Sequence record: PZ445428.1
Reading direction: 5' to 3' (one strand)
DNA from: a phage
Length of the DNA stretch: 64,000 nucleotides
The stretch's first letter is position 1, and each line of letters begins with the position of its first letter. Shown one piece after another: positions 4,216-31,074 of this stretch. Under the pieces are notes generated by a model that was not told where the DNA came from, did not search any database, and saw nothing but the letters and a program-made list of their open reading frames with translations. The translations under genes and the position numbers were made by a program.

Positions 4216-5592
4216 ATGACTATTGATATTAATAAGCTGAAGGAAGAACTTGGTCTGGGTGATCTGGCTAAATCTCTGGAAGGTCTGACTGCTGCTCAGA
4301 AAGCTGCGGAAGCTAAGCGTCTGCGTGAAGAGCAGGAAGAAAAAGAACTGGCTCGTATGAATGACCTGGTTGCTAAAGCTGTTGGCGAAGATCGTCAGAA
4401 AATGCAGGAAGCTCTGGATCTGGTTAAATCTCTGGACGAAAAGTCTAAGAAGAGCGCAGAACTGTTTGCACAGACGGTAGAGAAGCAGCAGGAAACCATC
4501 GTTGGTCTTCAGGACGAAATCAAATCTCTCCTGGCGGCACGTGACGGTCGTTCTTTCGTAGCTGACAACATCTCCAAAGCACTTCGTGGTGATCAGAACG
4601 CTTTCGAGGACGAAGTTGAAAAACTGGTTCTTCTGTCCTATGTAATGGAGAAAGGCGTATTTGATACTGACCATGGTCAGGCTCACCTGAAAGCTGTAAA
4701 CGCTTCATCTTCTGTTGAAGTATCTAGCGAATCTTACGAAACTATCTTCTCCCAGCGTATCATCCGTGATCTGCAGAAAGAACTGGTAGTTGGTGCTCTG
4801 TTCGAAGAACTGCCAATGTCCAGCAAACTTCTGACTATGCTGGTTGAGCCAGATGCTGGTCGCGCTACTTGGGTAGATGCTTCTACTTACGGTACTGATG
4901 CTACTACTGGTAACGAAGTTAAAGGTGCTCTGACTGAAATTCAGTTCAAGACCTACAAACTGGCTGCTAAGTCCTTCATCACTGATGAAACTGAAGAAGA
5001 TGCTATCTTCTCCCTGCTGCCTCTGTTACGTAAGCGTCTGATCGAAGCACACGCTGTTTCTATCGAAGAAGCTTTCATGACTGGTGACGGTTCTGGTAAG
5101 CCTAAAGGTCTGTTGACTCTGGCTTCCGAAGACAGTGCTAAAGTTGTTACCGAAGCTAAAGCTGACGGTTCCGTACTGGTAACTGCTAAGACTATCTCTA
5201 AGCTGCGTCGTAAACTGGGTCGCCACGGTCTGAAGCTTTCCAAGCTGGTACTGATCGTGTCTATGGATGCTTATTACGATCTGCTGGAAGATGAAGAATG
5301 GCAGGACGTTGCTCAGGTTGGTAACGATGCTGTTAAACTGCAGGGTCAGGTTGGTCGTATTTACGGTCTGCCGGTTGTAGTTTCTGAGTACTTCCCAGCT
5401 AAGGCTGCTTCTGCAGAATTCGCAGTAATCGTCTACAAGGACAACTTCGTAATGCCGCGTCAGCGTGCTGTTACTGTTGAACGTGAGCGCCAAGCTGGCA
5501 AACAGCGTGACGCATACTACGTTACTCAGCGTGTTAACCTGCAACGTTACTTCGAGAACGGCGTTGTATCCGGTGCTTACGCTGCATCTTAA
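4216..5592 (+). CDS. Major capsid protein precursor (N-terminal coiled-coil scaffold/delta domain)
   Basis: 458 aa; N-terminal roughly 150 aa strongly coiled-coil and charged; highly biased codon usage (ctg/cgt/gct); followed by a strong hairpin terminator. Confidence 0.85.
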   Translation: MTIDINKLKEELGLGDLAKSLEGLTAAQKAAEAKRLREEQEEKELARMNDLVAKAVGEDRQKMQEALDLVKSLDEKSKKSAELFAQTVEKQQETIVGLQDEIKSLLAARDGRSFVADNISKALRGDQNAFEDEVEKLVLLSYVMEKGVFDTDHGQAHLKAVNASSSVEVSSESYETIFSQRIIRDLQKELVVGALFEELPMSSKLLTMLVEPDAGRATWVDASTYGTDATTGNEVKGALTEIQFKTYKLAAKSFITDETEEDAIFSLLPLLRKRLIEAHAVSIEEAFMTGDGSGKPKGLLTLASEDSAKVVTEAKADGSVLVTAKTISKLRRKLGRHGLKLSKLVLIVSMDAYYDLLEDEEWQDVAQVGNDAVKLQGQVGRIYGLPVVVSEYFPAKAASAEFAVIVYKDNFVMPRQRAVTVERERQAGKQRDAYYVTQRVNLQRYFENGVVSGAYAAS

Positions 5593-5613
5593 TACAGGCT
5601 TTTCAGCCGATAA

Positions 5614-5637
5614 GGAGAGCTTCGGCTCTCCTTTTTT
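5614..5637 (+). terminator. Rho-independent terminator after major capsid gene
   Basis: GGAGAGC-TTCG-GCTCTCC hairpin followed by TTTTTT. Confidence 0.7.
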
Positions 5638-5651
5638 ATTGGGAAAAATAA

Positions 5652-6164
5652 ATGCAAATCATCACTGTTGAAGATTACAGACTATATGCTAACGCAAAAC
5701 GTCCTGAAATTGAAACACAAGTAGATATGATGATTAAAGCTGCCAATACGCTGATTACTAGCCTTCTAGGTATGGACGACGCGGATGCGGTAGATCAATT
5801 AATCACTACTAAACCTAGCCGTAGGAAATACTTTTTGAGTTCTCCTTCTGCTACATCAGTCACAAAGATGACTATTAATGAGAATGAAATAGCCCCGGAA
5901 CAGTATAAACTGTATCCAGATGGTGTTATTCTCCTTAAATTTAATCCACCAGAAGGGTATATGGATGTAGAATATACGCAAGGTGGTTTCAACCCAATGC
6001 CTGAAGATCTCAAGCTGGCTGCATGTCTATTAGTAGATCACTGGCATAAACAAGATTATCGTCAAGCCAAGACTATTGGTGGTGAAACAGTAACGTTTAA
6101 CAATACTAAGTCAGGTATTCCTGAGCATATTCGTACAATCATCGAAGTCTATAGGAGAGTATAA
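5652..6164 (+). CDS. Head completion / head-tail adaptor protein (putative)
   Basis: 170-aa ORF directly after capsid gene terminator; assignment by gene order only. Confidence 0.4.
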   Translation: MQIITVEDYRLYANAKRPEIETQVDMMIKAANTLITSLLGMDDADAVDQLITTKPSRRKYFLSSPSATSVTKMTINENEIAPEQYKLYPDGVILLKFNPPEGYMDVEYTQGGFNPMPEDLKLAACLLVDHWHKQDYRQAKTIGGETVTFNNTKSGIPEHIRTIIEVYRRV

Positions 6165-6931
6165 TGTCTCTTTCTGATCTAGCTAGACAGATTATCAAAG
6201 AGCAGCTAGATACAGCAGGACGATCTGAAAATAATAAGAACACTGTTGTGTATACTGTTGAAACTGGGCTTAAAGATCCGAAAAGGGATGGTACTGTTGC
6301 GCAAGTATCATTCAAGTTCTCTAAACCAGTATCGCAGGACTTATTAAACGTGAGGACAGCCTCTATCTTGAAGGCTGTTTCCGCCAACTTAGATCTTTCT
6401 GGTGACTTAGGCGCTCTGGAAAATCTCATACAAGCCACGGCAGGCAAAAGATCAGCCGTTGGTAAGAAACGCTCAACTGGTAGGGTTCAAGTAAACTTTG
6501 GTGATCCTAGAGATACTGAAGATGGTTATTCAGGTGCAGTTACAGGTGCGGCTGGACGATTCGTTTCAAATAGTAACATGAAGGCTATCTTGGAGATAGT
6601 AGCTAAAGAATATCTTATTAAGGATATGAAGAAAGCAGGAGCGCCACTGAAATTCAGAACTGGACGTTTTGCTAACTCCCTTAAAATCAAAGATGTTATG
6701 TTACGTGATGCTGAAACAAGTCGTGGTGCTCCTGAACTTAATGTGACCTACAATTATATGGTTAGACCTTACTCAGTATTCAACCCCGCAGTATCCACCT
6801 ATCGCAGACTGTCTTTACGTCCTTACCCTGGGGCGAGAAACCCACAAAAACTTATTGGGGAAGCGATAGCTAAAGCTGCAAGAGACCTGATTCACTCTAG
6901 ATATAAAATCAAGGTTAATCAAGGAACCTAA
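6164..6931 (+). CDS. Structural protein, head-tail joining region (hypothetical)
   Basis: 255-aa ORF with AGGAGAG RBS, start overlaps upstream stop; synteny only. Confidence 0.35.
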   Translation: MSLSDLARQIIKEQLDTAGRSENNKNTVVYTVETGLKDPKRDGTVAQVSFKFSKPVSQDLLNVRTASILKAVSANLDLSGDLGALENLIQATAGKRSAVGKKRSTGRVQVNFGDPRDTEDGYSGAVTGAAGRFVSNSNMKAILEIVAKEYLIKDMKKAGAPLKFRTGRFANSLKIKDVMLRDAETSRGAPELNVTYNYMVRPYSVFNPAVSTYRRLSLRPYPGARNPQKLIGEAIAKAARDLIHSRYKIKVNQGT

Positions 6932-6934
6932 TAA

Positions 6935-7420
6935 ATGGATCACAGAACAAGTATTGCACAAGCGCTGGTTGATCGAATCTCCAAGCAAATGGACGGATCT
7001 CAGCCAGATGAGTATTTTAACAACCTTTATGGAAACGTTTCTCGTCAAACTTATAGATTTGAGGAAATCCGAGAATTCCCTTACGTGGCAGTTCATATAG
7101 GAACTGAAACTGGGCAGTATCTTCCTTCAGGTCAACAGTGGATGTTTTTAGAACTTCCAATTCTGGTCTATGACAAAGAAGAAACAGATATTCAAGAGCA
7201 ACTTGAAAAACTCGTAGCTGACATAAAAACCGTCATTGACACAGGTGGAAATTTAGAATATACTGTTAGTAAACCTAATGGATCGACCTTCCCATGTGAG
7301 GCAACTGATATGAGCATCACGTCAGTTAGTACAGATGAGGGTCTACTGGCCCCATATGGTTTAGCGGAAATAAATGTAACAGTGCGCTATATGCCACCTA
7401 AGCGTGCATTACGCAGATAA
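6935..7420 (+). CDS. Tail terminator/completion protein (putative)
   Basis: 161-aa ORF immediately upstream of tail tube gene; synteny only. Confidence 0.35.
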   Translation: MDHRTSIAQALVDRISKQMDGSQPDEYFNNLYGNVSRQTYRFEEIREFPYVAVHIGTETGQYLPSGQQWMFLELPILVYDKEETDIQEQLEKLVADIKTVIDTGGNLEYTVSKPNGSTFPCEATDMSITSVSTDEGLLAPYGLAEINVTVRYMPPKRALRR

Positions 7421-7446
7421 GTTACAGATTAGGAGAATATAAATAA

Positions 7447-8856
7447 ATGTCTTTACAACTATTACGTAATACTCGAATCTTCGTGTCTACGGTTAAGACT
7501 GGTCACACCAAAGAAAACACGCAAGAGATTCTAGTTCAAGATGATATTTCTTGGGGTCAGGACAGTAACTCAACCGATATTACTGTTAACGAAGCTGGTC
7601 CGCGTCCAACTCGTGGTTCAAAACGTTTCAACGACTCCTTGAACGCTGCTGAGTGGAGCTTCTCTACTTACATCCTGCCTTACGCGGATAAAACTACTGG
7701 TAAGCAGATCGTTCCAGACTATATGTTATGGCATGCGCTCTCTAGTGGTAAGCCTATCGATCTCGATGGTGATACTGGAGCTCATACTAACGAAACCAAC
7801 TTCATGGTTAACTTTAAGGATAACGCATATCACGAACTGGCTATGCTGCACATTTATATCCTTACTGATAAAGCCTGGAGTTACATTGATTCCTGTCAGA
7901 TCAACCAAGCCGAAGTAAACGTAGATATCGAAGATATCGGTCGTGTAACTTGGTCGGGTAACGGTAACCAGCTGATTCCTTTGGATTCACAGCCATTTGA
8001 CCCTGATACTGTAGGTATCGATGATGAAACTTACATGACTATCCAGAGTTCTTATATTAAGAACAAATTAACTATCCTGAAGATCAAGGATATGGATACT
8101 GGTAAGGCATATGATATTCCGATCACTGGTGGTAGCTTCACAATCAACAACAACATCACCTACCTGACTCCGAACATCATGTCCCGTGTAAACATTCCAA
8201 TCGGTTCCTTTACTGGTGCATTCGAACTAACTGGTTCTCTGACTGCTTATCTGAACGATAAAGCTCTAGGTTCTATGGATCTGTACAAAGATCTGATTAA
8301 GACCCTGAAAGTAGTTAACCGTTTCGAAATTGCCCTGATTCTTGGTGGTGAATACGATGATGAGCGCCCTGCAGCTGTTCTGGTCGCTAAGCAAGCCCAC
8401 GTTAACATCCCAACTATCGAGACTGACGATGTACTTGGTACTTCTGTTGAGTTCAAGGCTATCCCTACCGATCTGGATACAGGTGATGAAGGTTACCTTG
8501 GTTTCTCTAACAAGTATACCAAAACTACTATCGCTAACCTGATTGCTACAGGTGACGGTGGTCAAGTTGCTCCGGTTCCAGTTACTGGCATTACTGTTAA
8601 GTCTGCTGGTGACGCTACTTCAGTTGAAAACAGCGCAACTCTTCAGATGACTGTAGATGTTCTGCCTGCTGAAGCTACGAACAAGGCTGTAACTTGGTCT
8701 ATCTCTTCTGGTACTGCTGCTACTATTGACGCAACTTCTGGTCTTCTGACTGCTGATGCTTCTAAAACTGGTGCAATTACGGTCAAAGCGGTAGCTAAAG
8801 ACGGTTCTGGTGTAGAAGGTACTAAGAGCATTACAGTTACTGCTTCTGGTGGCTAA
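7447..8856 (+). CDS. Major tail tube protein with C-terminal Ig-like (Big_2-type) domain
   Basis: 469 aa; AGGAGA RBS; C-terminal ITVKSAGDATSVENSATLQMTVDVLPAEATNKAVTWSISSG...ITVKAVAKDGSG resembles bacterial Ig-like domains; position upstream of tape measure. Confidence 0.75.
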   Translation: MSLQLLRNTRIFVSTVKTGHTKENTQEILVQDDISWGQDSNSTDITVNEAGPRPTRGSKRFNDSLNAAEWSFSTYILPYADKTTGKQIVPDYMLWHALSSGKPIDLDGDTGAHTNETNFMVNFKDNAYHELAMLHIYILTDKAWSYIDSCQINQAEVNVDIEDIGRVTWSGNGNQLIPLDSQPFDPDTVGIDDETYMTIQSSYIKNKLTILKIKDMDTGKAYDIPITGGSFTINNNITYLTPNIMSRVNIPIGSFTGAFELTGSLTAYLNDKALGSMDLYKDLIKTLKVVNRFEIALILGGEYDDERPAAVLVAKQAHVNIPTIETDDVLGTSVEFKAIPTDLDTGDEGYLGFSNKYTKTTIANLIATGDGGQVAPVPVTGITVKSAGDATSVENSATLQMTVDVLPAEATNKAVTWSISSGTAATIDATSGLLTADASKTGAITVKAVAKDGSGVEGTKSITVTASGG

Positions 8857-8860
8857 TTAA

Positions 8861-9757
8861 ATGTACTACTCTCTAATGCGAGAGTCGAAAGTTATAGTTG
8901 AGTACGATGGCAGGGCGTATCACTTTGACGCTCTGTCAAACTATGATATCAATACCTCCTACGAGGAATTTAAAACTCTTCGTAGGACTATTCATCGCAG
9001 AACCAACTATGCTGACTCTGTTATTAACGCACAAGCTCCATCATCAATATCGCTGGCTATAAATTTTAGTAATACCCTTACTGAGGCTAACTTCTTTGAA
9101 TGGATGGGCTTTGATAGAGAGGGTACTACCTTCCTACTACCACTTTATAGCACGAATATTGAACCAACAATGTTTAATATCTACATAGTTAATAAAGATA
9201 ATAACTGTGTATATTTTGAAAACTGTTTTGTATCTAACGTTGACTTCTCACTTGATAAGAATGTCCCTGTGCTGAATGTTGGTATTGAGTCTGGTAAGTT
9301 CTCTGAGGTATCCACGTACACTCCTGCTGGTATTGTTCAAGGCGAGGTTATGTCTTACAGCCCTCCTAGAGTAGCTACAAACAGTAATATTTTACCTGCT
9401 CTTTTATCCGCTTCTATGTCCTTCCAGCAGCAATGCTCTTGGAGAGAAGATAAAAGCGTATTTGACATAAACAAAATATATAATAATAAAAGAGCTTATG
9501 TTAATGAGATGAATGCTTCGGCAACAATTGCGTTCTACTACACCAAGCGATTTGCTGGTGATATGTTCTACAATATTGAACCTGAGACTGATATCCCTTT
9601 AACTATACGAAATGAACATATTTCGGTTGATTTCCCTTCAGCACGTATAACAAAACGCCTACAATTCTCGGATCTGTACAGGATTGAGTGGGATGTAATT
9701 CCTACTGCTGATTCTGATCCGGTAAGAATCGACTTCTTTGGAGAAATAAAGAAATGA
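8861..9757 (+). CDS. Minor tail protein (tail-tube-like, putative)
   Basis: 298-aa ORF between tail tube and tape measure genes; synteny only. Confidence 0.4.
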   Translation: MYYSLMRESKVIVEYDGRAYHFDALSNYDINTSYEEFKTLRRTIHRRTNYADSVINAQAPSSISLAINFSNTLTEANFFEWMGFDREGTTFLLPLYSTNIEPTMFNIYIVNKDNNCVYFENCFVSNVDFSLDKNVPVLNVGIESGKFSEVSTYTPAGIVQGEVMSYSPPRVATNSNILPALLSASMSFQQQCSWREDKSVFDINKIYNNKRAYVNEMNASATIAFYYTKRFAGDMFYNIEPETDIPLTIRNEHISVDFPSARITKRLQFSDLYRIEWDVIPTADSDPVRIDFFGEIKK

Positions 9758-10158
9758 TTAACTTAAAAGATATTACCCTAGATACTCGCTCTGTTACGCT
9801 TTCCTACCCTGGTATGCCTAACTTTAAGCTTGAACTGAACTACATGTCTCGTGCTACCTCTAAGCGTGTTATTGCTTCTGCAAAACGTGATGAGTGGGTT
9901 AACGGTACACTGTTACAAGTTCAGGATGATGACAAGTTCATCGAAGCTTTCGTTGACTCTGCTATCAAAGGTTGGACTGGTCTGACTATTGGTGATGTTG
10001 AGAAGCTGATGCTGATTGAAACTGAAGCTGATCCATCTACCGAAGTTCCTTTTAGCCGCGATAATGCTGTGATGCTAATGCAGAACTCTGCTGCGTTTGA
10101 TTCTTGGATCAACCAGACAGTGTTCCACTTAGACACTTTTCGTAGCCCAAAAGCGTAA
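9754..10158 (+). CDS. Tail assembly chaperone candidate
   Basis: 134-aa acidic ORF directly upstream of tape measure region; position typical of chaperone. Confidence 0.35.
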   Translation: MINLKDITLDTRSVTLSYPGMPNFKLELNYMSRATSKRVIASAKRDEWVNGTLLQVQDDDKFIEAFVDSAIKGWTGLTIGDVEKLMLIETEADPSTEVPFSRDNAVMLMQNSAAFDSWINQTVFHLDTFRSPKA

Positions 10159-10163
10159 ACAAC

Positions 10164-10220
10164 TTTTAGATGCCGTTGCCAAATTCGCAGACAAATGCGT
10201 TAAATCTTCGGCATCTAAAA
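10164..10220 (+). promoter_or_regulatory. 12-bp perfect inverted repeat enclosing the start of ORF 10220
   Basis: TTTTAGATGCCG (10164-10175) and CGGCATCTAAAA (10209-10220); right arm ends on the A of the ATG. Confidence 0.5.
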
Positions 10221-10588
10221 TGACTAAAGAACAATACTTAATAATGTGCGAGTCAATGGGTATCGAACCAGATCCTGATGTGATGCCTGTTGAACTCGAA
10301 GATTTTCCACCTATCGTATCTACTAGTATGCAAATTTATAACAGTCTCATTGATTGTTTCATACCGGGTGACTTTCCTATCTTTATAGGCAAAGACAAGG
10401 GTGCATTAGGTGTTTTATTTGATATCTATGGGATTACTGATCCGATAGAGAAAGAGTTCGTTCTACATATCATCAATATATTTGATTCGAAAGCAGTAGA
10501 CGCAGCTCGTAAGAGAGCCGAGAAACATGGGAAACAGAATGGTCGCACTCCGAACATTAAACCTCATGGAAGATCTCGAGCTCAGTAA
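10220..10588 (+). CDS. Hypothetical protein (tail assembly region)
   Basis: 122-aa ORF; ATG has no SD and lies inside a 12-bp inverted repeat; frame is open upstream from 10136. Confidence 0.3.
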   Translation: MTKEQYLIMCESMGIEPDPDVMPVELEDFPPIVSTSMQIYNSLIDCFIPGDFPIFIGKDKGALGVLFDIYGITDPIEKEFVLHIINIFDSKAVDAARKRAEKHGKQNGRTPNIKPHGRSRAQ

Positions 10589-10625
10589 AAGTTTCCTCCA
10601 ATGGGCGTTCCACGATGAGGCTTGG

Positions 10626-10656
10626 CTCTGGGTGATTTGCCCAGAGCCTTTTTTAT
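10626..10656 (+). terminator. Rho-independent terminator upstream of tape measure gene
   Basis: GGCTCTGGG-TGATTTG-CCCAGAGCC hairpin followed by TTTTTT. Confidence 0.65.
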
Positions 10657-10668
10657 TGGGAAAAATAA

Positions 10669-13600
10669 ATGACTGATAAGCTAATACGAGAACTACTGAT
10701 AGACGTAAAGCAGAAAGGGGCAACCCGTACTGCTAAATCTATTGAAAATGTTTCCAATGCGTTAGAGGATGCTGCTGCCGCTTCTGAACTGACTAATGAA
10801 CAGTTAGGAAAGATGCCCAAAACTCTTTATTCCATTGAGAGGGCGGCGGATAGAGCAGCAAAAAGTCTAACGAAGATGCAAGCAAACCGTGGTATGGCTA
10901 GTATAACTACTTCAATAACAAAAATTGGAGATAAGTTAGATGACTTAGCACTAGCAATGCTAGATGTTGCAGATAAAATGGAAAGTGGTTTTGACCACGT
11001 TGGTAAATCTGTAAAGGCTATGGGCAATGACGTAGCTTCTGCAACTGAAAAAGTTCAAGATAGGTTATACGATACAAATAGAGCCTTAGCAGGTACCTCT
11101 AGAGGCTTTAATGATACCACTACGGCAGCAGGACGCGCTAGCCGAGCAATCGGTAATACTTCTGGGTCAGCACGTGGCGCAACTCGTGACTTCGCAGCTA
11201 TGGCTAAAGTAGGAGGTGGTTTACCTCTAATGTATGCTGCAATCGCATCTAACGTGTTCGTTCTGCAATCTGCTTTCGAACAACTGAAGATGGGTGACCA
11301 GTTAAACCGTCTAGAGAAGTTTGGTACTATAGTTGGTACTCAGACGGGTACTCCAGTACAGACGTTGGCTAGATCTCTACAAGAAGCTGCTGGTTATGCA
11401 ATTTCTTTTGAAGAAGCAATGAGACAGGCATCTTCTGCTTCTGCATATGGTTTTGATGCAGAACAACTTAATAAGTTCGGTCTAGTAGCTCGTCGTGCTG
11501 CTGCTGTTCTTGGTGTAGATATGACTGATGCGCTTAACCGTGTAATCAAGGGTGTATCCAAACAAGAAATCGAACTTCTGGATGAGCTTGGTGTTACTAT
11601 TCGTCTTAATGATGCCTTCGCTGATTACGTTAAACAGCTTAATGCTGCTAACACTGGTATTACATATAATATTAATAGCCTTTCTTCCTTCCAGAAGCAA
11701 CAAGCATACGCTAACGCAGTAATCGCTGAATCTACTAAACGTTTCGGCTACCTGGACGACGTGCTTCGTGCAACTCCATGGGAACAGTTTGCTGCTAACG
11801 CTGATGCTGCCTTACGTAAGATTCAACAAGCTGCTGCTAAGTACCTTGGTCCAGTTATTGATTCTATTAACGCAGTATTCTATACTTCTCAAGCTTCTAT
11901 CTCTGCAACTGCGGCTAGGGCACAGGAGCAGACAAACAAATCGATTGATCCTAGTAACGTGGGTGCTGTAGCTCTTGGGCTCGAGGCATCAGAAGCTGGG
12001 TACAATAAGGCTCTCGATATGTATAGAGAATCTCTAGATAAGCGTAATAAGTTAAAGGCTGATCTAGATAAACGTATGCAGCAAGCTGACTTCTTTACCA
12101 CTGGTGCAATCCGCTCTGTGGCTCAAGGAGTTCCTTTAAGTGCTGCTGCATTGGGTGCTTCCGAGGAGAATAAGAAGTTTGTTGCTGATACCGCTGCAAT
12201 GGCATTACAAGTAGAACGTCTTGATAAGGAAGTTGCTGACTCTACAGATAACTTAGGAGCCTGGAAATCTGCGTATCAAGCTGCTGGAGCGGCTGCTGCT
12301 AAGGCAAATCCTGAGTTCCAAAAACAAATTAATCTGCAGAAAGATGCTAATGATCCGAGTGCAGTTTACGACTTCAATTCTGAAACTCTAAAAGGATTAA
12401 CGGAGCAGCAGAAAGCGTACAACCAGACTAAGAAAACTGCTAGTGACTTAGCAAATGATATTCAGAACATTGCTCAAAATACTAACACTGCTGCTAAGAC
12501 AAGTGCATCATTAGCTGATACAATTAAGACTATTGAATCGCTATCAGCTGGTACTGGTAAGAATGCTGATGAGTATGTTAAGAGCCTGAACTTAGGTTAT
12601 AATACTCTAAGTGAAATGAAAACTGCTTCCCAAGCACTTGCTGGGTACGTAAAACTAACTGGTGATGAAACTAAGAATCAGTTAGCTGTTCAGCAGAAGA
12701 TTGCCGAAGTATACAACCAGACTAAGGACAAAGAAAAGGCTCAGGAAGCTGGTAGACGTCTGGAAGTTCAACAGCTAGAAGAACAGGAAGCCGCACTTAA
12801 GCGTGTACTGGAAACTAACCAAGGTAATAAAGCAATTGAAAATGAGATTGCTAAAATCCAGTTAGAGAAGATCAAAATCGCTAACCAGAACATGGAAGCT
12901 CAGAAGAAGGTTAAGGATTATACGGATAAGATCCTTGGTGTCGATCGTGAAATTGCTCTGCTTAACAACCGTACTATGACGGATACTCAATATAAGTTAG
13001 CTCAGTTGAATCTTGAACTGACTATCGAGAAAGAGAAGTATGCGTGGTACTCTAAGCAGGTTGACAAACAGAAGGATGCTGAGCAATCAAGACGTGCTCA
13101 GGCACAGATTGAACGTGAAATCTGGAAGTTCCGTCAAGACCAGCAAATGGAAATGGCCAGTGGGCGCGAGAGAGCCTTAGGGATATCCCAAACCGAACGT
13201 AACGTTACTGGTGAATCTCAGCGTTTAACTGAACAGCAAGCTCTGTACCAAAGTCTACTGGAGATTACAAAAGGAAACGCACAAGCTCAGGAAGAGTATA
13301 AGCGTAAGATCCAAGAAACTTCGGCAGCTCTAGCACAACTCAAGATGCAACGTGATGCTCAAATGCAGCAATCTGTTACTTCTTCTGTTGGTGGCACTTA
13401 TACACCTACTACTGGACTGGAGGGTGATGATAAGGCCAATATGGATATGCAGAATAGAATGGCATCCTATGACCAGGCTATCTCTAAATTATCTGAGCTG
13501 AACTCTGAAGCAGCTGCAGTAGCACAAAGTATGGGTAATCTAACTAATGCTATGATTCAGTTCTCCCAAGGATCTCTGGATACCACATCTTTAGTAGCTG

Positions 13601-14349
13601 CTGGTATGCAAACTGTATCTTCAATGATTCAGTATAGTGTTGGTCAACAGGTAAGTGCGATTGATCAGGCTATTGCGGCAGAACAGAAGCGTGATGGTAA
13701 ATCAGAGGCATCTAAGGCTAAGATCAAGAAGTTAGAAGCTGAAAAGCTTAAGATCCAACAAGATGCAGCTAAGAAGCAAATCATCATCCAAACAGCAGTT
13801 GCAGTTATGCAGGCAGCTACTGCAGTACCTTATCCATTCTCTATCCCATTAATGGTGGCGGCTGGATTGGCAGGTGCTATGGCATTAGCTCAGGCGTCTT
13901 CCGCATCTGGTATGTCTAGTATTGGAGACACGGGTGGAGACACTGCTAGTTATTTAACTCTTGGTGAGCGCCAGAAGAACGTTGATGTTTCTATGTCGGC
14001 TAATGCTGGTGAATTATCCTACGTGCGGGGTGATCAAGGTATCGGCAATGCCAACTCCTTTGTCCCTCGTGCAGAAGGTGGTAATATGTACCCAGGAGTT
14101 AGTTACCAGATGGGTGAACATGGTACCGAGGTAATTACTCCTATGGTTCCCATGAAGGCTACTCCTGCTGATGAAGTTAAAGGCTCAGCTAGAGGATCAT
14201 CTGGTAGACCTATTGTACTGAACATCAATACAATGGATGCGGCGAGCTTCCGAGATTTTGCTTCGAGTAACAGTGCTGCGTTCAGGGATGCCGTGGAACA
14301 GGCTCTTAATGAGAATGGAACCACCCTGAAATCACTTGGTAATTCTTAA
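10669..14349 (+). CDS. Tape measure protein
   Basis: 1226 aa, long alpha-helical/coiled-coil Ala/Gln/Lys-rich body with hydrophobic segment near C-terminus; canonical position. Confidence 0.85.
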   Translation: MTDKLIRELLIDVKQKGATRTAKSIENVSNALEDAAAASELTNEQLGKMPKTLYSIERAADRAAKSLTKMQANRGMASITTSITKIGDKLDDLALAMLDVADKMESGFDHVGKSVKAMGNDVASATEKVQDRLYDTNRALAGTSRGFNDTTTAAGRASRAIGNTSGSARGATRDFAAMAKVGGGLPLMYAAIASNVFVLQSAFEQLKMGDQLNRLEKFGTIVGTQTGTPVQTLARSLQEAAGYAISFEEAMRQASSASAYGFDAEQLNKFGLVARRAAAVLGVDMTDALNRVIKGVSKQEIELLDELGVTIRLNDAFADYVKQLNAANTGITYNINSLSSFQKQQAYANAVIAESTKRFGYLDDVLRATPWEQFAANADAALRKIQQAAAKYLGPVIDSINAVFYTSQASISATAARAQEQTNKSIDPSNVGAVALGLEASEAGYNKALDMYRESLDKRNKLKADLDKRMQQADFFTTGAIRSVAQGVPLSAAALGASEENKKFVADTAAMALQVERLDKEVADSTDNLGAWKSAYQAAGAAAAKANPEFQKQINLQKDANDPSAVYDFNSETLKGLTEQQKAYNQTKKTASDLANDIQNIAQNTNTAAKTSASLADTIKTIESLSAGTGKNADEYVKSLNLGYNTLSEMKTASQALAGYVKLTGDETKNQLAVQQKIAEVYNQTKDKEKAQEAGRRLEVQQLEEQEAALKRVLETNQGNKAIENEIAKIQLEKIKIANQNMEAQKKVKDYTDKILGVDREIALLNNRTMTDTQYKLAQLNLELTIEKEKYAWYSKQVDKQKDAEQSRRAQAQIEREIWKFRQDQQMEMASGRERALGISQTERNVTGESQRLTEQQALYQSLLEITKGNAQAQEEYKRKIQETSAALAQLKMQRDAQMQQSVTSSVGGTYTPTTGLEGDDKANMDMQNRMASYDQAISKLSELNSEAAAVAQSMGNLTNAMIQFSQGSLDTTSLVAAGMQTVSSMIQYSVGQQVSAIDQAIAAEQKRDGKSEASKAKIKKLEAEKLKIQQDAAKKQIIIQTAVAVMQAATAVPYPFSIPLMVAAGLAGAMALAQASSASGMSSIGDTGGDTASYLTLGERQKNVDVSMSANAGELSYVRGDQGIGNANSFVPRAEGGNMYPGVSYQMGEHGTEVITPMVPMKATPADEVKGSARGSSGRPIVLNINTMDAASFRDFASSNSAAFRDAVEQALNENGTTLKSLGNS

Positions 14350-14353
14350 TATT

Positions 14354-14384
14354 GGAGGAGGACTTTATGTCCTCCTTTTCTTTA
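14354..14384 (+). terminator. Rho-independent terminator after tape measure gene
   Basis: GGAGGAC-TTTAT-GTCCTCC hairpin then TTTTCTTT. Confidence 0.6.
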
Positions 14385-14402
14385 TGGAAAAATAAAAATT
14401 TC

Positions 14403-14431
14403 TTGATAAAATTTTCCAATCCTATTATAAT
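14403..14431 (+). promoter_or_regulatory. Sigma70-type promoter upstream of distal tail protein gene
   Basis: TTGATA-17 nt-TATAAT, directly after terminator hairpin. Confidence 0.5.
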
Positions 14432-30553: not shown

Positions 30554-31074
30554 CTTTGTGCATACTTTCGCTTTATCTCTTGAATATCTATTCCTTGTTT
30601 CAGTTCACTCAAAACCTGGACTAAGATGCCCTCGAGATCTTTTCGTTCTTTACTAGCCATTATATGGTAGTGTTTTTTTTTTTTTTTATTATAATACAAA
30701 CGTAGAGTATATGTACTTGATTTGACATTGTAGCTTATATTTCCAGAATAATTTTCTATATTCTGCATGTTAGATCGGTGATCACCGTTTTTGAGGTTGT
30801 CCCATCTATTATCGTGTCGTATGCGATTATCATGGTCAATTTCTTCTGGCATCTCCCCGGTTTGCATTAACCAAATAAGTCTGTGCAACCTATATTTAGT
30901 TCCAAATACCATAGCATCTAAATATCCAGACTGCTTAGAGGGAGTTCCTACAGGTTTTCCTACACAATCTTTAGGAAGTCCATTTGACCATACTTTATAG
31001 GTTACAATACCTGTATCTGGATCATATGAGAATCTACGATGACATTCATTGTACAACTTAACTAAATCATCCAT
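30550..31074 (-). CDS. HNH homing endonuclease (HNH_3-like)
   Basis: GKPVG...GY...YRLHRL...IDHDNR...DNRWDNL motif set; paralogous to ORF 57161-57679; contains an A15 run (KKKKK). Confidence 0.6.
   Translation of the reverse strand: MDDLVKLYNECHRRFSYDPDTGIVTYKVWSNGLPKDCVGKPVGTPSKQSGYLDAMVFGTKYRLHRLIWLMQTGEMPEEIDHDNRIRHDNRWDNLKNGDHRSNMQNIENYSGNISYNVKSSTYTLRLYYNKKKKKHYHIMASKERKDLEGILVQVLSELKQGIDIQEIKRKYAQR
30673..30687 (-). repeat. Homopolymer run (T15 on plus strand, A15 on coding strand) inside HNH ORF
   Basis: 15 consecutive T at 30673-30687; encodes KKKKK in the minus-strand ORF. Confidence 0.9.

Follow-up and report, generated by a model that had tools for sequence, protein, structure and literature searches.

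In the annotation of bacteriophage T5 (NC_005859), a "putative rho-independent transcription terminator" is recorded at all three of the late-region junctions orthologous to those described here; promoter P-G25 follows the third of these terminators and promoter P-J5 is located inside the tail terminator gene. Both are T5 late promoters of the classical sigma-70 type, with -35, -10 and UP elements, and give late transcripts in vivo. The T5 annotation is silent on a string of 21–23 nt shared between junctions. A leaky terminator directly after the major capsid gene is also known from T7, in which T-phi follows gene 10; T7 genes 11 and 12 lack promoters of their own and depend entirely on read-through of T-phi, and the logic, a step down after the virion protein made in the greatest amount, is the same. 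The polymerases differ: T-phi stops T7 RNA polymerase, and transcription in T5-like phages is by the host sigma-70 RNA polymerase. A likeness at the level of translation is offered by the U-rich enhancer of Escherichia coli rnd, a U-run just upstream of a weakly initiating start; in the work of Zhang and Deutscher from 1992 this U-run reportedly comes after a terminator-like stem-loop. Tracts rich in U, or in A and U, are binding sites for 30S subunits or protein S1 and stimulate translation (summarized in PMC5934652). The phage elements differ from the rnd enhancer in that hairpin and U-run are primarily a terminator between genes of one operon.

The DNA analysed (the window) is a stretch of 64,000 nucleotides of sequence record PZ445428.1, the genome of the T5-like Escherichia phage TrudiGerster. 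A 23-nt string, TTTTTTATTGGGAAAAATAAATG, was confirmed to occur exactly twice in the window on the + strand, at 5632–5654 (site 1) and 10649–10671 (site 2), each copy abutting a strong hairpin, as an earlier sequence-only reading had described. Both copies end in the genuine ATG of an annotated gene, head completion/adaptor (5652) and tape measure (10669). No further match with up to three mismatches was found in the window, none of 100 shuffles gave a match, and the whole genome (114,179 bp) contained no extra copy even when up to five mismatches were allowed. Being confined to two places in 114 kb and missing from every other late-gene start, the string does not behave as a dedicated repeated cis-element, and its proposed role as a "late" element was not borne out. 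The string is a composite of ordinary parts, namely a terminator U-tract (TTTTTTATT), the weak Shine-Dalgarno (SD) sequence GGGA, an A-rich spacer and the ATG. Two consensus-like parts add up to the repeat, which is no new signal. Sites 1 and 2 are most probably terminator–ribosome-binding site junctions at which expression drops from abundant virion proteins to rare ones, and the 23-nt identity very probably has no function of its own.

Site 1 lies between the major capsid protein gene (4216–5592) and the head completion/adaptor gene (5652–6164), both as annotated; this and all other features described here are on the + strand. The capsid stop is closely followed by a small hairpin, GGCU-UUUC-AGCC (5597–5608; RNA folding and family sequences), and then by GCCGA, which is kept in the enterobacterial lineages. 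The hairpin of terminator 1, AAGGAGAGC-UUCG-GCUCUCCUU, occupies 5612–5633 (folding, family sequences and the putative rho-independent terminator of the T5 RefSeq record) and has the core GGAGAGC-TTCG-GCTCTCC. The stem is followed by TTTTTTATT at 5632–5640, the first nine nucleotides of the 23-mer, of which eight are U, and the whole has the anatomy of an intrinsic terminator. The weak SD GGGA at 5641–5644 (anti-SD pairing and relatives) and the spacer AAAATAA with the adaptor ATG at 5645–5654 (start-context matrix) complete the string. The start at this position is confirmed by the structure of the T5 adaptor, p144, of which all 170 residues were modelled (PMC11313276). The site-1 loci of relatives were located via the capsid protein, the head-completion protein being without conserved stretches, and structure was judged by folding each lineage separately; the divergent stems were unalignable with MAFFT. 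By this per-lineage folding a hairpin of -17 to -23 kcal/mol was present in every lineage, with different stems in the distant ones, and the terminator 1 hairpin sequence was invariant from T5 to a Proteus phage.

At site 2 the annotated tail assembly chaperone ORF (10220–10588) is followed by a non-coding stretch conserved in family sequences, TTTCCTCCAATGGGCGTTCCACGATGAGG (10592–10620), and by the hairpin of terminator 2, GGCUCUGGG...CCCAGAGCC (10624–10648), which corresponds to an annotated T5 terminator. Here too the anatomy is that of an intrinsic terminator, an 11-pair stem and then TTTTTTATT, and the hairpin is supported by covariation, eight of ten pairs showing double compensatory changes across the family. 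The second 23-mer consists of the U-tract (10649–10657), GGGA (10658–10661), the spacer (10662–10668) and the ATG (10669–10671) of the annotated tape measure gene (10669–14349), whose N-terminus, MTDKLIRE, is conserved.

The conserved primary-sequence stretch at 10592–10620 adjoins terminator 2. RNAfold predicted a long-range pairing of it with the U-tract and SD, which would sequester the latter. This was rejected: of 12 lineages tested, only the T5 group and lineage L045 had a duplex more stable than expected from shuffles (≤0.03 of which were at least as stable), and RNAalifold retained the terminator hairpin alone. A small CCUC/GAGG hairpin within the stretch showed no compensatory pair and did not outperform shuffles. 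A coding extension or frameshift product over 10589–10623 was rejected because close relatives differ by 1-nt indels and the frames are not conserved. A search of Rfam gave nothing relevant; its one match had E = 0.27 and scored far short of the gathering threshold.

The GGGA motif is placed 7 nt ahead of the ATG and its duplex with the anti-SD was calculated at -4.2 kcal/mol, as against a genome median of -6.0. Among the 169 annotated genes 25% have an SD as weak or weaker, so that GGGA falls in the weakest quartile but is present, upstream of a genuine start; the impression that a canonical SD is missing was right as to weakness and wrong as to pairing. Measured on a start-context matrix of this genome, the 14 nt ahead of each of the two ATGs reach the 99th percentile, and AATAAATG precedes five late genes. 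In distant lineages the position of GGGA holds a canonical SD (GGAG, GAGG, GGAGG, AGGAG or AGGAGG). The proposal of a conserved late translation-initiation element is thus correct in so far as the string contains the initiation region of both genes, which is not a dedicated "late" element. Hairpin, U-rich run (8 U in 9 nt) and weak SD also reproduce the anatomy of an rnd-type U-rich/S1 enhancer, and the U-tract may act as one.

The following mechanism is proposed for the two junctions. Highly expressed late genes come directly before each junction, the major capsid gene in the case of site 1 and the block from tail tube to chaperone in that of site 2, and right behind them the GC-rich hairpin with TTTTTTATT would act as an intrinsic terminator. 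The majority of RNA polymerases would halt there, and the read-through fraction would be the sole mRNA for the adaptor and the tape measure, proteins needed in few copies. Translation of both would start from the weak GGGA in an A-rich, unstructured spacer directly after the U-tract, attenuation and weak ribosome-binding site jointly lowering expression to virion stoichiometry. Partial termination had been suggested before; the intrinsic terminators are present, and we infer that terminators 1 and 2 are leaky because only 20 nt separate hairpin from ATG and no promoter fits in this gap. The T5 virion contains 775 copies of the major capsid protein and 12 of the adaptor (PMC11313276). A single co-directional late block could thus yield 775 capsid, 12 adaptor and few tape measure copies by means of a leaky terminator and, directly after it, a weak ribosome site.

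Both junctions combine a family-typical U-tract with a near-consensus start context, which may suffice to make them identical in the T5 subfamily, and purifying selection on each junction separately would maintain the identity. All Demerecviridae lineages examined have kept the layout of hairpin, T-tract, SD and ATG at the two junctions, and that of the post-capsid junction persisted in remote relatives with a capsid protein identity of 35%. Exact identity of the two sites (21–23 nt) was limited to the T5 subfamily, the sites being about six edits apart outside it. Within the subfamily the junctions diverged by 0.7% at site 1 and 5% at site 2, as compared with 19–46% at neighbouring third codon positions. 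Most Tequintavirus genomes have 2–3 additional bases ahead of the site-2 ATG. In classical T5 a homing-endonuclease gene stands in place of GGGAAAAATAAA and separates the T-tract from the tape measure gene, and because of this insertion classical T5 has only one full copy of the string; going by these genomes, the exact string is dispensable at site 2.

The limitation of exact identity to the T5 subfamily is also what would be expected if the identity were historical, with gene conversion or short-patch recombination in the subfamily's ancestor having overwritten one junction with a copy of the other, and the outgroup form of site 1, GGGTAAAATAAATG, is one substitution from the T5 form. However, the outgroup states of both sites are only 1–3 edits from the shared string, which makes a copying event unnecessary; recombination would have had to act on a very short patch, 21 nt set among hairpins and genes that are unrelated, and no sign of repeated conversion was seen in other lineages. 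Copying is thus regarded as unlikely. Concerted evolution of the two sites was not supported by a permutation test (12 lineages; p = 0.14–0.40), and the resemblance of site 1 to site 2 inside a genome was not above that between genomes (12 lineages).

The layout proposed for sites 1 and 2, terminator followed by ribosome-binding site, is a common and already annotated phage design, all three terminators being found in the T5 RefSeq record. A control string of the same design, TTTTTTATTGGAGAAAATAAA, was found in 19 unrelated IMG/VR contigs, in 14 of which a hairpin abutted it and an ORF began there as well; these junctions of other phages differ from the present ones in having other hairpins, other genes and mostly a canonical GGAG. 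The exact T5 23-mer is also found after a different hairpin in an unrelated marine siphophage, L079, where it again precedes the tape measure gene. This could hint at a transferable cassette, and coincidence is plausible; there is no need to invoke horizontal transfer, given that control strings built in the same way are as frequent or more so. In bacterial genomes 35 copies of the 21-mer were found, 15 after hairpins and three before ORF starts, with none in both positions, and the 21-mer there is generic low-complexity sequence.

The sequence of site 1 is more invariant than a generic terminator needs. Its hairpin, T-tract and ATTGGG were unchanged in lineages in which the hairpins of sites 2 and 3 vary by compensatory substitutions. 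Leads with regulatory potential are offered only by this invariant hairpin and by the conserved stretch ahead of terminator 2. Hairpin 1 (GGAGAGC-UUCG-GCUCUCC), together with the U-tract and GGGA that follow it, might be a sequence-specific operator, as might the stretch by terminator 2, and a phage factor or the late-modified RNA polymerase would read them to set read-through, the U-tract doubling as an S1-type enhancer that couples translation of adaptor and tape measure to read-through; this we consider doubtful. In a related reading, the junctions could be sequence-specific operators at which a phage or host factor reads hairpin, U-tract and GGGA, tuning read-through by antitermination or repressing translation, with the 23-mer as the shared site. 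In favour of operators are the invariance of the site-1 hairpin and module at 30–71% identity of the flanking proteins while other terminators covary, the 0.7% junction divergence at site 1 against 19–33% at synonymous-type positions, and the conserved element beside terminator 2. On the other hand, the sites share only the T-tract and ribosome-binding site, their hairpins and upstream elements being unlike, and do not co-vary across the family (p = 0.14–0.40); the site-2 spacer varies by 2–3 nt and T5 site 2 is without the GGGAAAAATAAA half. The string is at no other gene in the genome, and no Rfam match was obtained. An operator with the 23-mer as its shared site is accordingly quite unlikely.

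The two hexamers that border GGGA, TTTATT and AATAAA, are perfect reverse complements, and RNAfold gave a 6-bp stem with GGGA in the loop, which might serve as a structural signal for translation; the same hexamers flank the SD at site 1 of the Proteus phage, site 1 of JSF12 and site 2 of My1. The stem amounts to only -1.5 kcal/mol (z = -1.74), 18 of 200 shuffles folded equally well, any T-tract with an A-rich spacer can pair in this way, and the register is shifted or lost in other lineages, so that such a signal is very unlikely.

A related version of the string had been noted at a third terminator (site 3), the hairpin of which (14354–14378) lies past the tape measure stop (14347–14349) and is annotated as a terminator in T5. 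The likeness is confined to GGAAAAATAAA, at 14386–14396; the T-tract is another one (TTTTCTTTA) and the sequence does not lead into an ATG. Instead, the related sequence, GGAAAAATAAAAA (14386–14398), precedes the late promoter P-G25, TTGATA-N17-TATAAT (14403–14431), which was found by scanning and agrees with the T5 annotation "promoter P-G 25" and with T5 primer extension. By position relative to the start of P-G25, both placed from the hexamers, GGAAAAATAAAAA spans about -52 to -40, the UP-element zone. The sigma-70 late promoter was thus found at site 3, and downstream of it a strong SD, AAGAGGAGA, precedes the ATG (14458) of the distal tail protein gene. The third copy alone qualifies by position as an UP element because sites 1 and 2 are without a core promoter; it is the UP-element region of P-G25 and differs in function from sites 1 and 2. 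The other late promoter, P-J5 (TTGACA-N17-TATACT, 7236–7264; scan, T5 annotation and T5 mapping), is inside the tail terminator gene; from it, between terminators 1 and 2, transcription starts afresh for the tail tube gene (7447).

For sites 1 and 2, a sigma-70 scan gave no -35 and -10 hexamers 16–18 nt apart at 5632–5700 or 10649–10720, that is, within or downstream of the string, and the claim of a late promoter here failed. Promoter hexamers picked by manual inspection were poor or non-conserved. A late promoter or UP element identical with the string or located within it, from which transcription restarts after complete termination, is suggested by the resemblance of its A-rich half to GGAAAAATAAAAA upstream of the P-G25 -35, by the "putative late promoter T5P40" over site 1 in GenBank AY587007 and by a Sigma70Pred "hypothetical late promoter" at site 1 in the BF23 record, but is extremely unlikely, given that both annotations are computational predictions only, that the mapped T5 late promoters are of the classical sigma-70 type and located elsewhere, that the best T5 -10 candidate, AATAAT in codons 2–4, spans the variable wobble position of codon 3 (ATA/ATC) and reads AATCAT in the window, and that T5P40 implies a start inside the gene, which cannot yield the fully modelled 170-residue adaptor (PMC11313276). 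The results have little import beyond annotation, in which they count against two entries of one T5 record, its shortened ORF137 and its "T5P40" promoter.

Escherichia phage TrudiGerster (MZ501108.1), an Epseptimavirus of the Demerecviridae and a relative of T5, was 100% identical to the window in the region tested; record position 483 corresponds to position 1 of the window. The sole difference found between the two was the homopolymer at 30673-30687 (T15 in the window, T13 in MZ501108.1). The full 114-kb genome was assembled for genome-wide searches. Late structural genes fill positions 1-25700, all on the + strand, and in this region exact copies of TTTTTTATTGGGAAAAATAAATG lie at 5632-5654 and 10649-10671, each straight after a hairpin and ending in the ATG of the next gene, as the sequence-only reading had described. 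The first copy (site 1) lies downstream of the major capsid gene (4216-5592), follows the terminator 1 hairpin (5612-5633) and ends in the start of the head completion (adaptor) gene (ATG 5652). The second (site 2) lies downstream of a tail assembly chaperone ORF (10220-10588), follows the terminator 2 hairpin (10624-10648) and ends in the start of the tape measure gene (ATG 10669). No third match with up to three mismatches was found in the window, and none in 100 shuffles. In the whole genome, the 23-mer (≤5 mismatches), its 17-nt core (≤3 mismatches) and GGGAAAAATAAATG (≤2 mismatches) matched only sites 1 and 2. The related version proposed for a third site, at 14386, shares GGAAAAATAAA and nothing else of the string.

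The first 9 nt of the 23-mer, TTTTTTATT, form the U-tract of an intrinsic terminator; this exact tail was found in three of the 34 terminator-like sites of a genome-wide scan. GGGA, 7 nt before the ATG, is a weak Shine-Dalgarno (SD) sequence: its pairing energy to the 16S 3' end is -4.2 kcal/mol, the 169 annotated starts have a median of -6.0, and in a quarter of them the SD is no stronger than GGGA. The start context of the genome consists of G at positions -12 to -9 followed by A from -8 to -1, and both sites fall in the 99th percentile of the corresponding matrix. Five late genes are preceded by AATAAATG, and the tail tube gene, too, has AAATAAATG ahead of it. Judged from its sequence, the 23-mer is best read as a composite of ordinary parts (U-tract, weak SD and spacer), and the two junctions look alike because both carry the U-tract of the family and the consensus start context of the genome.

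In T5, the host sigma-70 RNA polymerase transcribes all temporal classes, the late promoters have -35, -10 and UP elements, and late transcripts from P-J5 and P-G25 were detected by primer extension. In the window, P-J5 (7236-7264, + strand; TTGACA-N17-TATACT, near-consensus) is located within the tail terminator gene, 180 nt upstream of the tail tube gene, and P-G25 (TTGATA-N17-TATAAT) occupies 14403-14431 of the + strand. The related version, GGAAAAATAAAAA (14386-14398), falls at about -52 to -40 of P-G25, that is, in its UP zone. No comparable promoter was found by scanning downstream of either copy of the string, and the 20 nt from the start of the T-tract to the ATG leave no room for one, so that the genes at 5652-7420 and the tape measure gene would be transcribed by read-through only. 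The mapped promoters lie elsewhere. The interpretation as a late promoter or dedicated element was abandoned; its other half, a translation start joined to a probably leaky terminator, was retained. In AY587007 (record 101118-101679), ORF137 (adaptor) begins 78 nt late and a "putative late promoter T5P40" extends over the real start as well as terminator 1. The cryo-EM model contains all 170 residues of the adaptor, p144 (PMC11313276), hence the start is the ATG inside the string, which indicates that both the ORF137 start and the T5P40 annotation are wrong. T5P40 is a prediction only, as is the Sigma70Pred promoter at site 1 of BF23.

The junctions were compared with those of the GenBank relatives T5, T5_ev219, BF23, phiR2-01, Sugarland, My1, Proteus M4H10_20, Vibrio JSF12 and D239, and with 61 IMG/VR loci retrieved by capsid-protein alignment. 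The order of stop, hairpin, T-tract, purines, A/T spacer and ATG was kept at both junctions in every Demerecviridae lineage compared, and the same layout follows the capsid gene in remote relatives with 35% capsid identity. What is conserved in relatives is this layout; exact identity of the two sites is limited to the T5 subfamily, outside which they differ by about 6 edits. Sites were not more similar within a genome than between genomes (6.08 vs 6.57 edits, p = 0.14, and p = 0.40 when the window's group was left out), and the outgroup states of the junctions are only 1-3 edits from the shared string. In most Tequintavirus genomes the site-2 ATG is preceded by 2-3 extra bases (…AAATAAAACATG, …AAAATATG, …AAATTATG), so that they share 21 nt, not 23. 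In classical T5 (NC_005859), the homing-endonuclease gene T5.141 (record 95777-96529) has been inserted at site 2, directly behind TTTTTTATT, and the RBS of the tape measure gene is another one, cAGGAaaacattagATG; the GGGAAAAATAAA half is therefore dispensable at this site. In three IMG/VR genomes (L025, L031 and L059), endonuclease genes separate the capsid stop from hairpin 1, and the module is kept downstream of them; homing endonucleases appear to land preferentially at these intergenic junctions.

At the GGGA position other genomes have GGGT, GGA, AGGA, GGAG, GAGG, GGAGG, AGGAG or AGGAGG, which identifies it as the SD, weak in the T5 group. The site-2 hairpin showed compensatory double changes in 8 of 10 pairs; the site-1 hairpin folds in all lineages at -17 to -23 kcal/mol, the distant lineages having other stems. 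Within the T5 subfamily, junction divergence was 0.7% (site 1) and 5% (site 2), compared with 19-46% at the third codon positions next to them. The sequence of hairpin 1 and its tail, GGAGAGC-UUCG-GCUCUCC plus TTTTTTATTGGG (5612-5644), is invariant in T5, Sugarland, the L042 lineage and Proteus phage M4H10_20, and almost invariant in My1. Hairpin, tail and ATTGGG are invariant though the flanking proteins are 30-71% identical (Proteus phage adaptor, about 30%); in the same genomes the site-2 and site-3 hairpins show compensatory substitutions instead. After the chaperone stop and ahead of terminator 2, the primary sequence of TTTCCTCCAATGGGCGTTCCACGATGAGG (10592-10620) is conserved across the Demerecviridae, including Vibrio and Proteus phages. 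This element is non-coding and present only once in the genome; close relatives differ in it by 1-nt indels, and no RNA structure was supported for it.

The shared 21-mer matched 33 IMG/VR contigs, all but three of which appear T5-like (roughly 100-120 kb, most also retrieved in the capsid-protein search), with two copies in 21 of the T5-like ones. The other three were one Paenibacillus-type sequence, which lacks an ATG, and two contigs of an unrelated marine siphophage. This siphophage (IMGVR_UViG_3300032255_000005; L079, 9511-9531, - strand; L110, 3124-3146) has the identical 23-mer plus AC, preceded by a different hairpin, GCCGCTTTTAAGCGGC, and directly starting the tape measure gene. The phages nearest to this siphophage are those of Pseudoalteromonas, at about 30% tape measure protein identity. 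Control strings of the same design matched 2 and 19 unrelated contigs, hairpin and ORF start both being present in 14 of the 19 matches of TTTTTTATTGGAGAAAATAAA, which suggests that the siphophage 23-mer is a coincidence within a common design. Bacterial genomes contained 35 copies of the 21-mer, 15 of them after hairpins and none of the 35 with both hairpin and ORF start. Terminator-RBS junctions of this form are common, the T5 string being one member of the class, and the terminators at these junctions are already annotated in T5; the observation is real and the design an ordinary one.

In the virion, 775 capsid subunits compare with 12 of the adaptor, and the 120 subunits of the tail tube with a tape measure filling its lumen (PMC11313276). 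In the proposed layout, expression would be strong up to the capsid gene and attenuated by terminator 1, P-J5 would restart transcription for the tail tube gene between the two terminators, terminator 2 would attenuate it again ahead of the tape measure gene, and, after terminator 3, the baseplate genes would be served by P-G25 and a strong SD. The classic parallel is T-phi of T7, located after capsid gene 10. The U-run beside the weak SD could also aid 30S/S1 binding, a role reported for the U-run of the rnd mRNA (PMC5934652). The 61-nt gap between the two chaperone ORFs (10159-10219) contains an inverted repeat, GATGCCG...CGGCATC, ending 4 nt before the ATG at 10220, a start with almost no SD (-1.7 kcal/mol).
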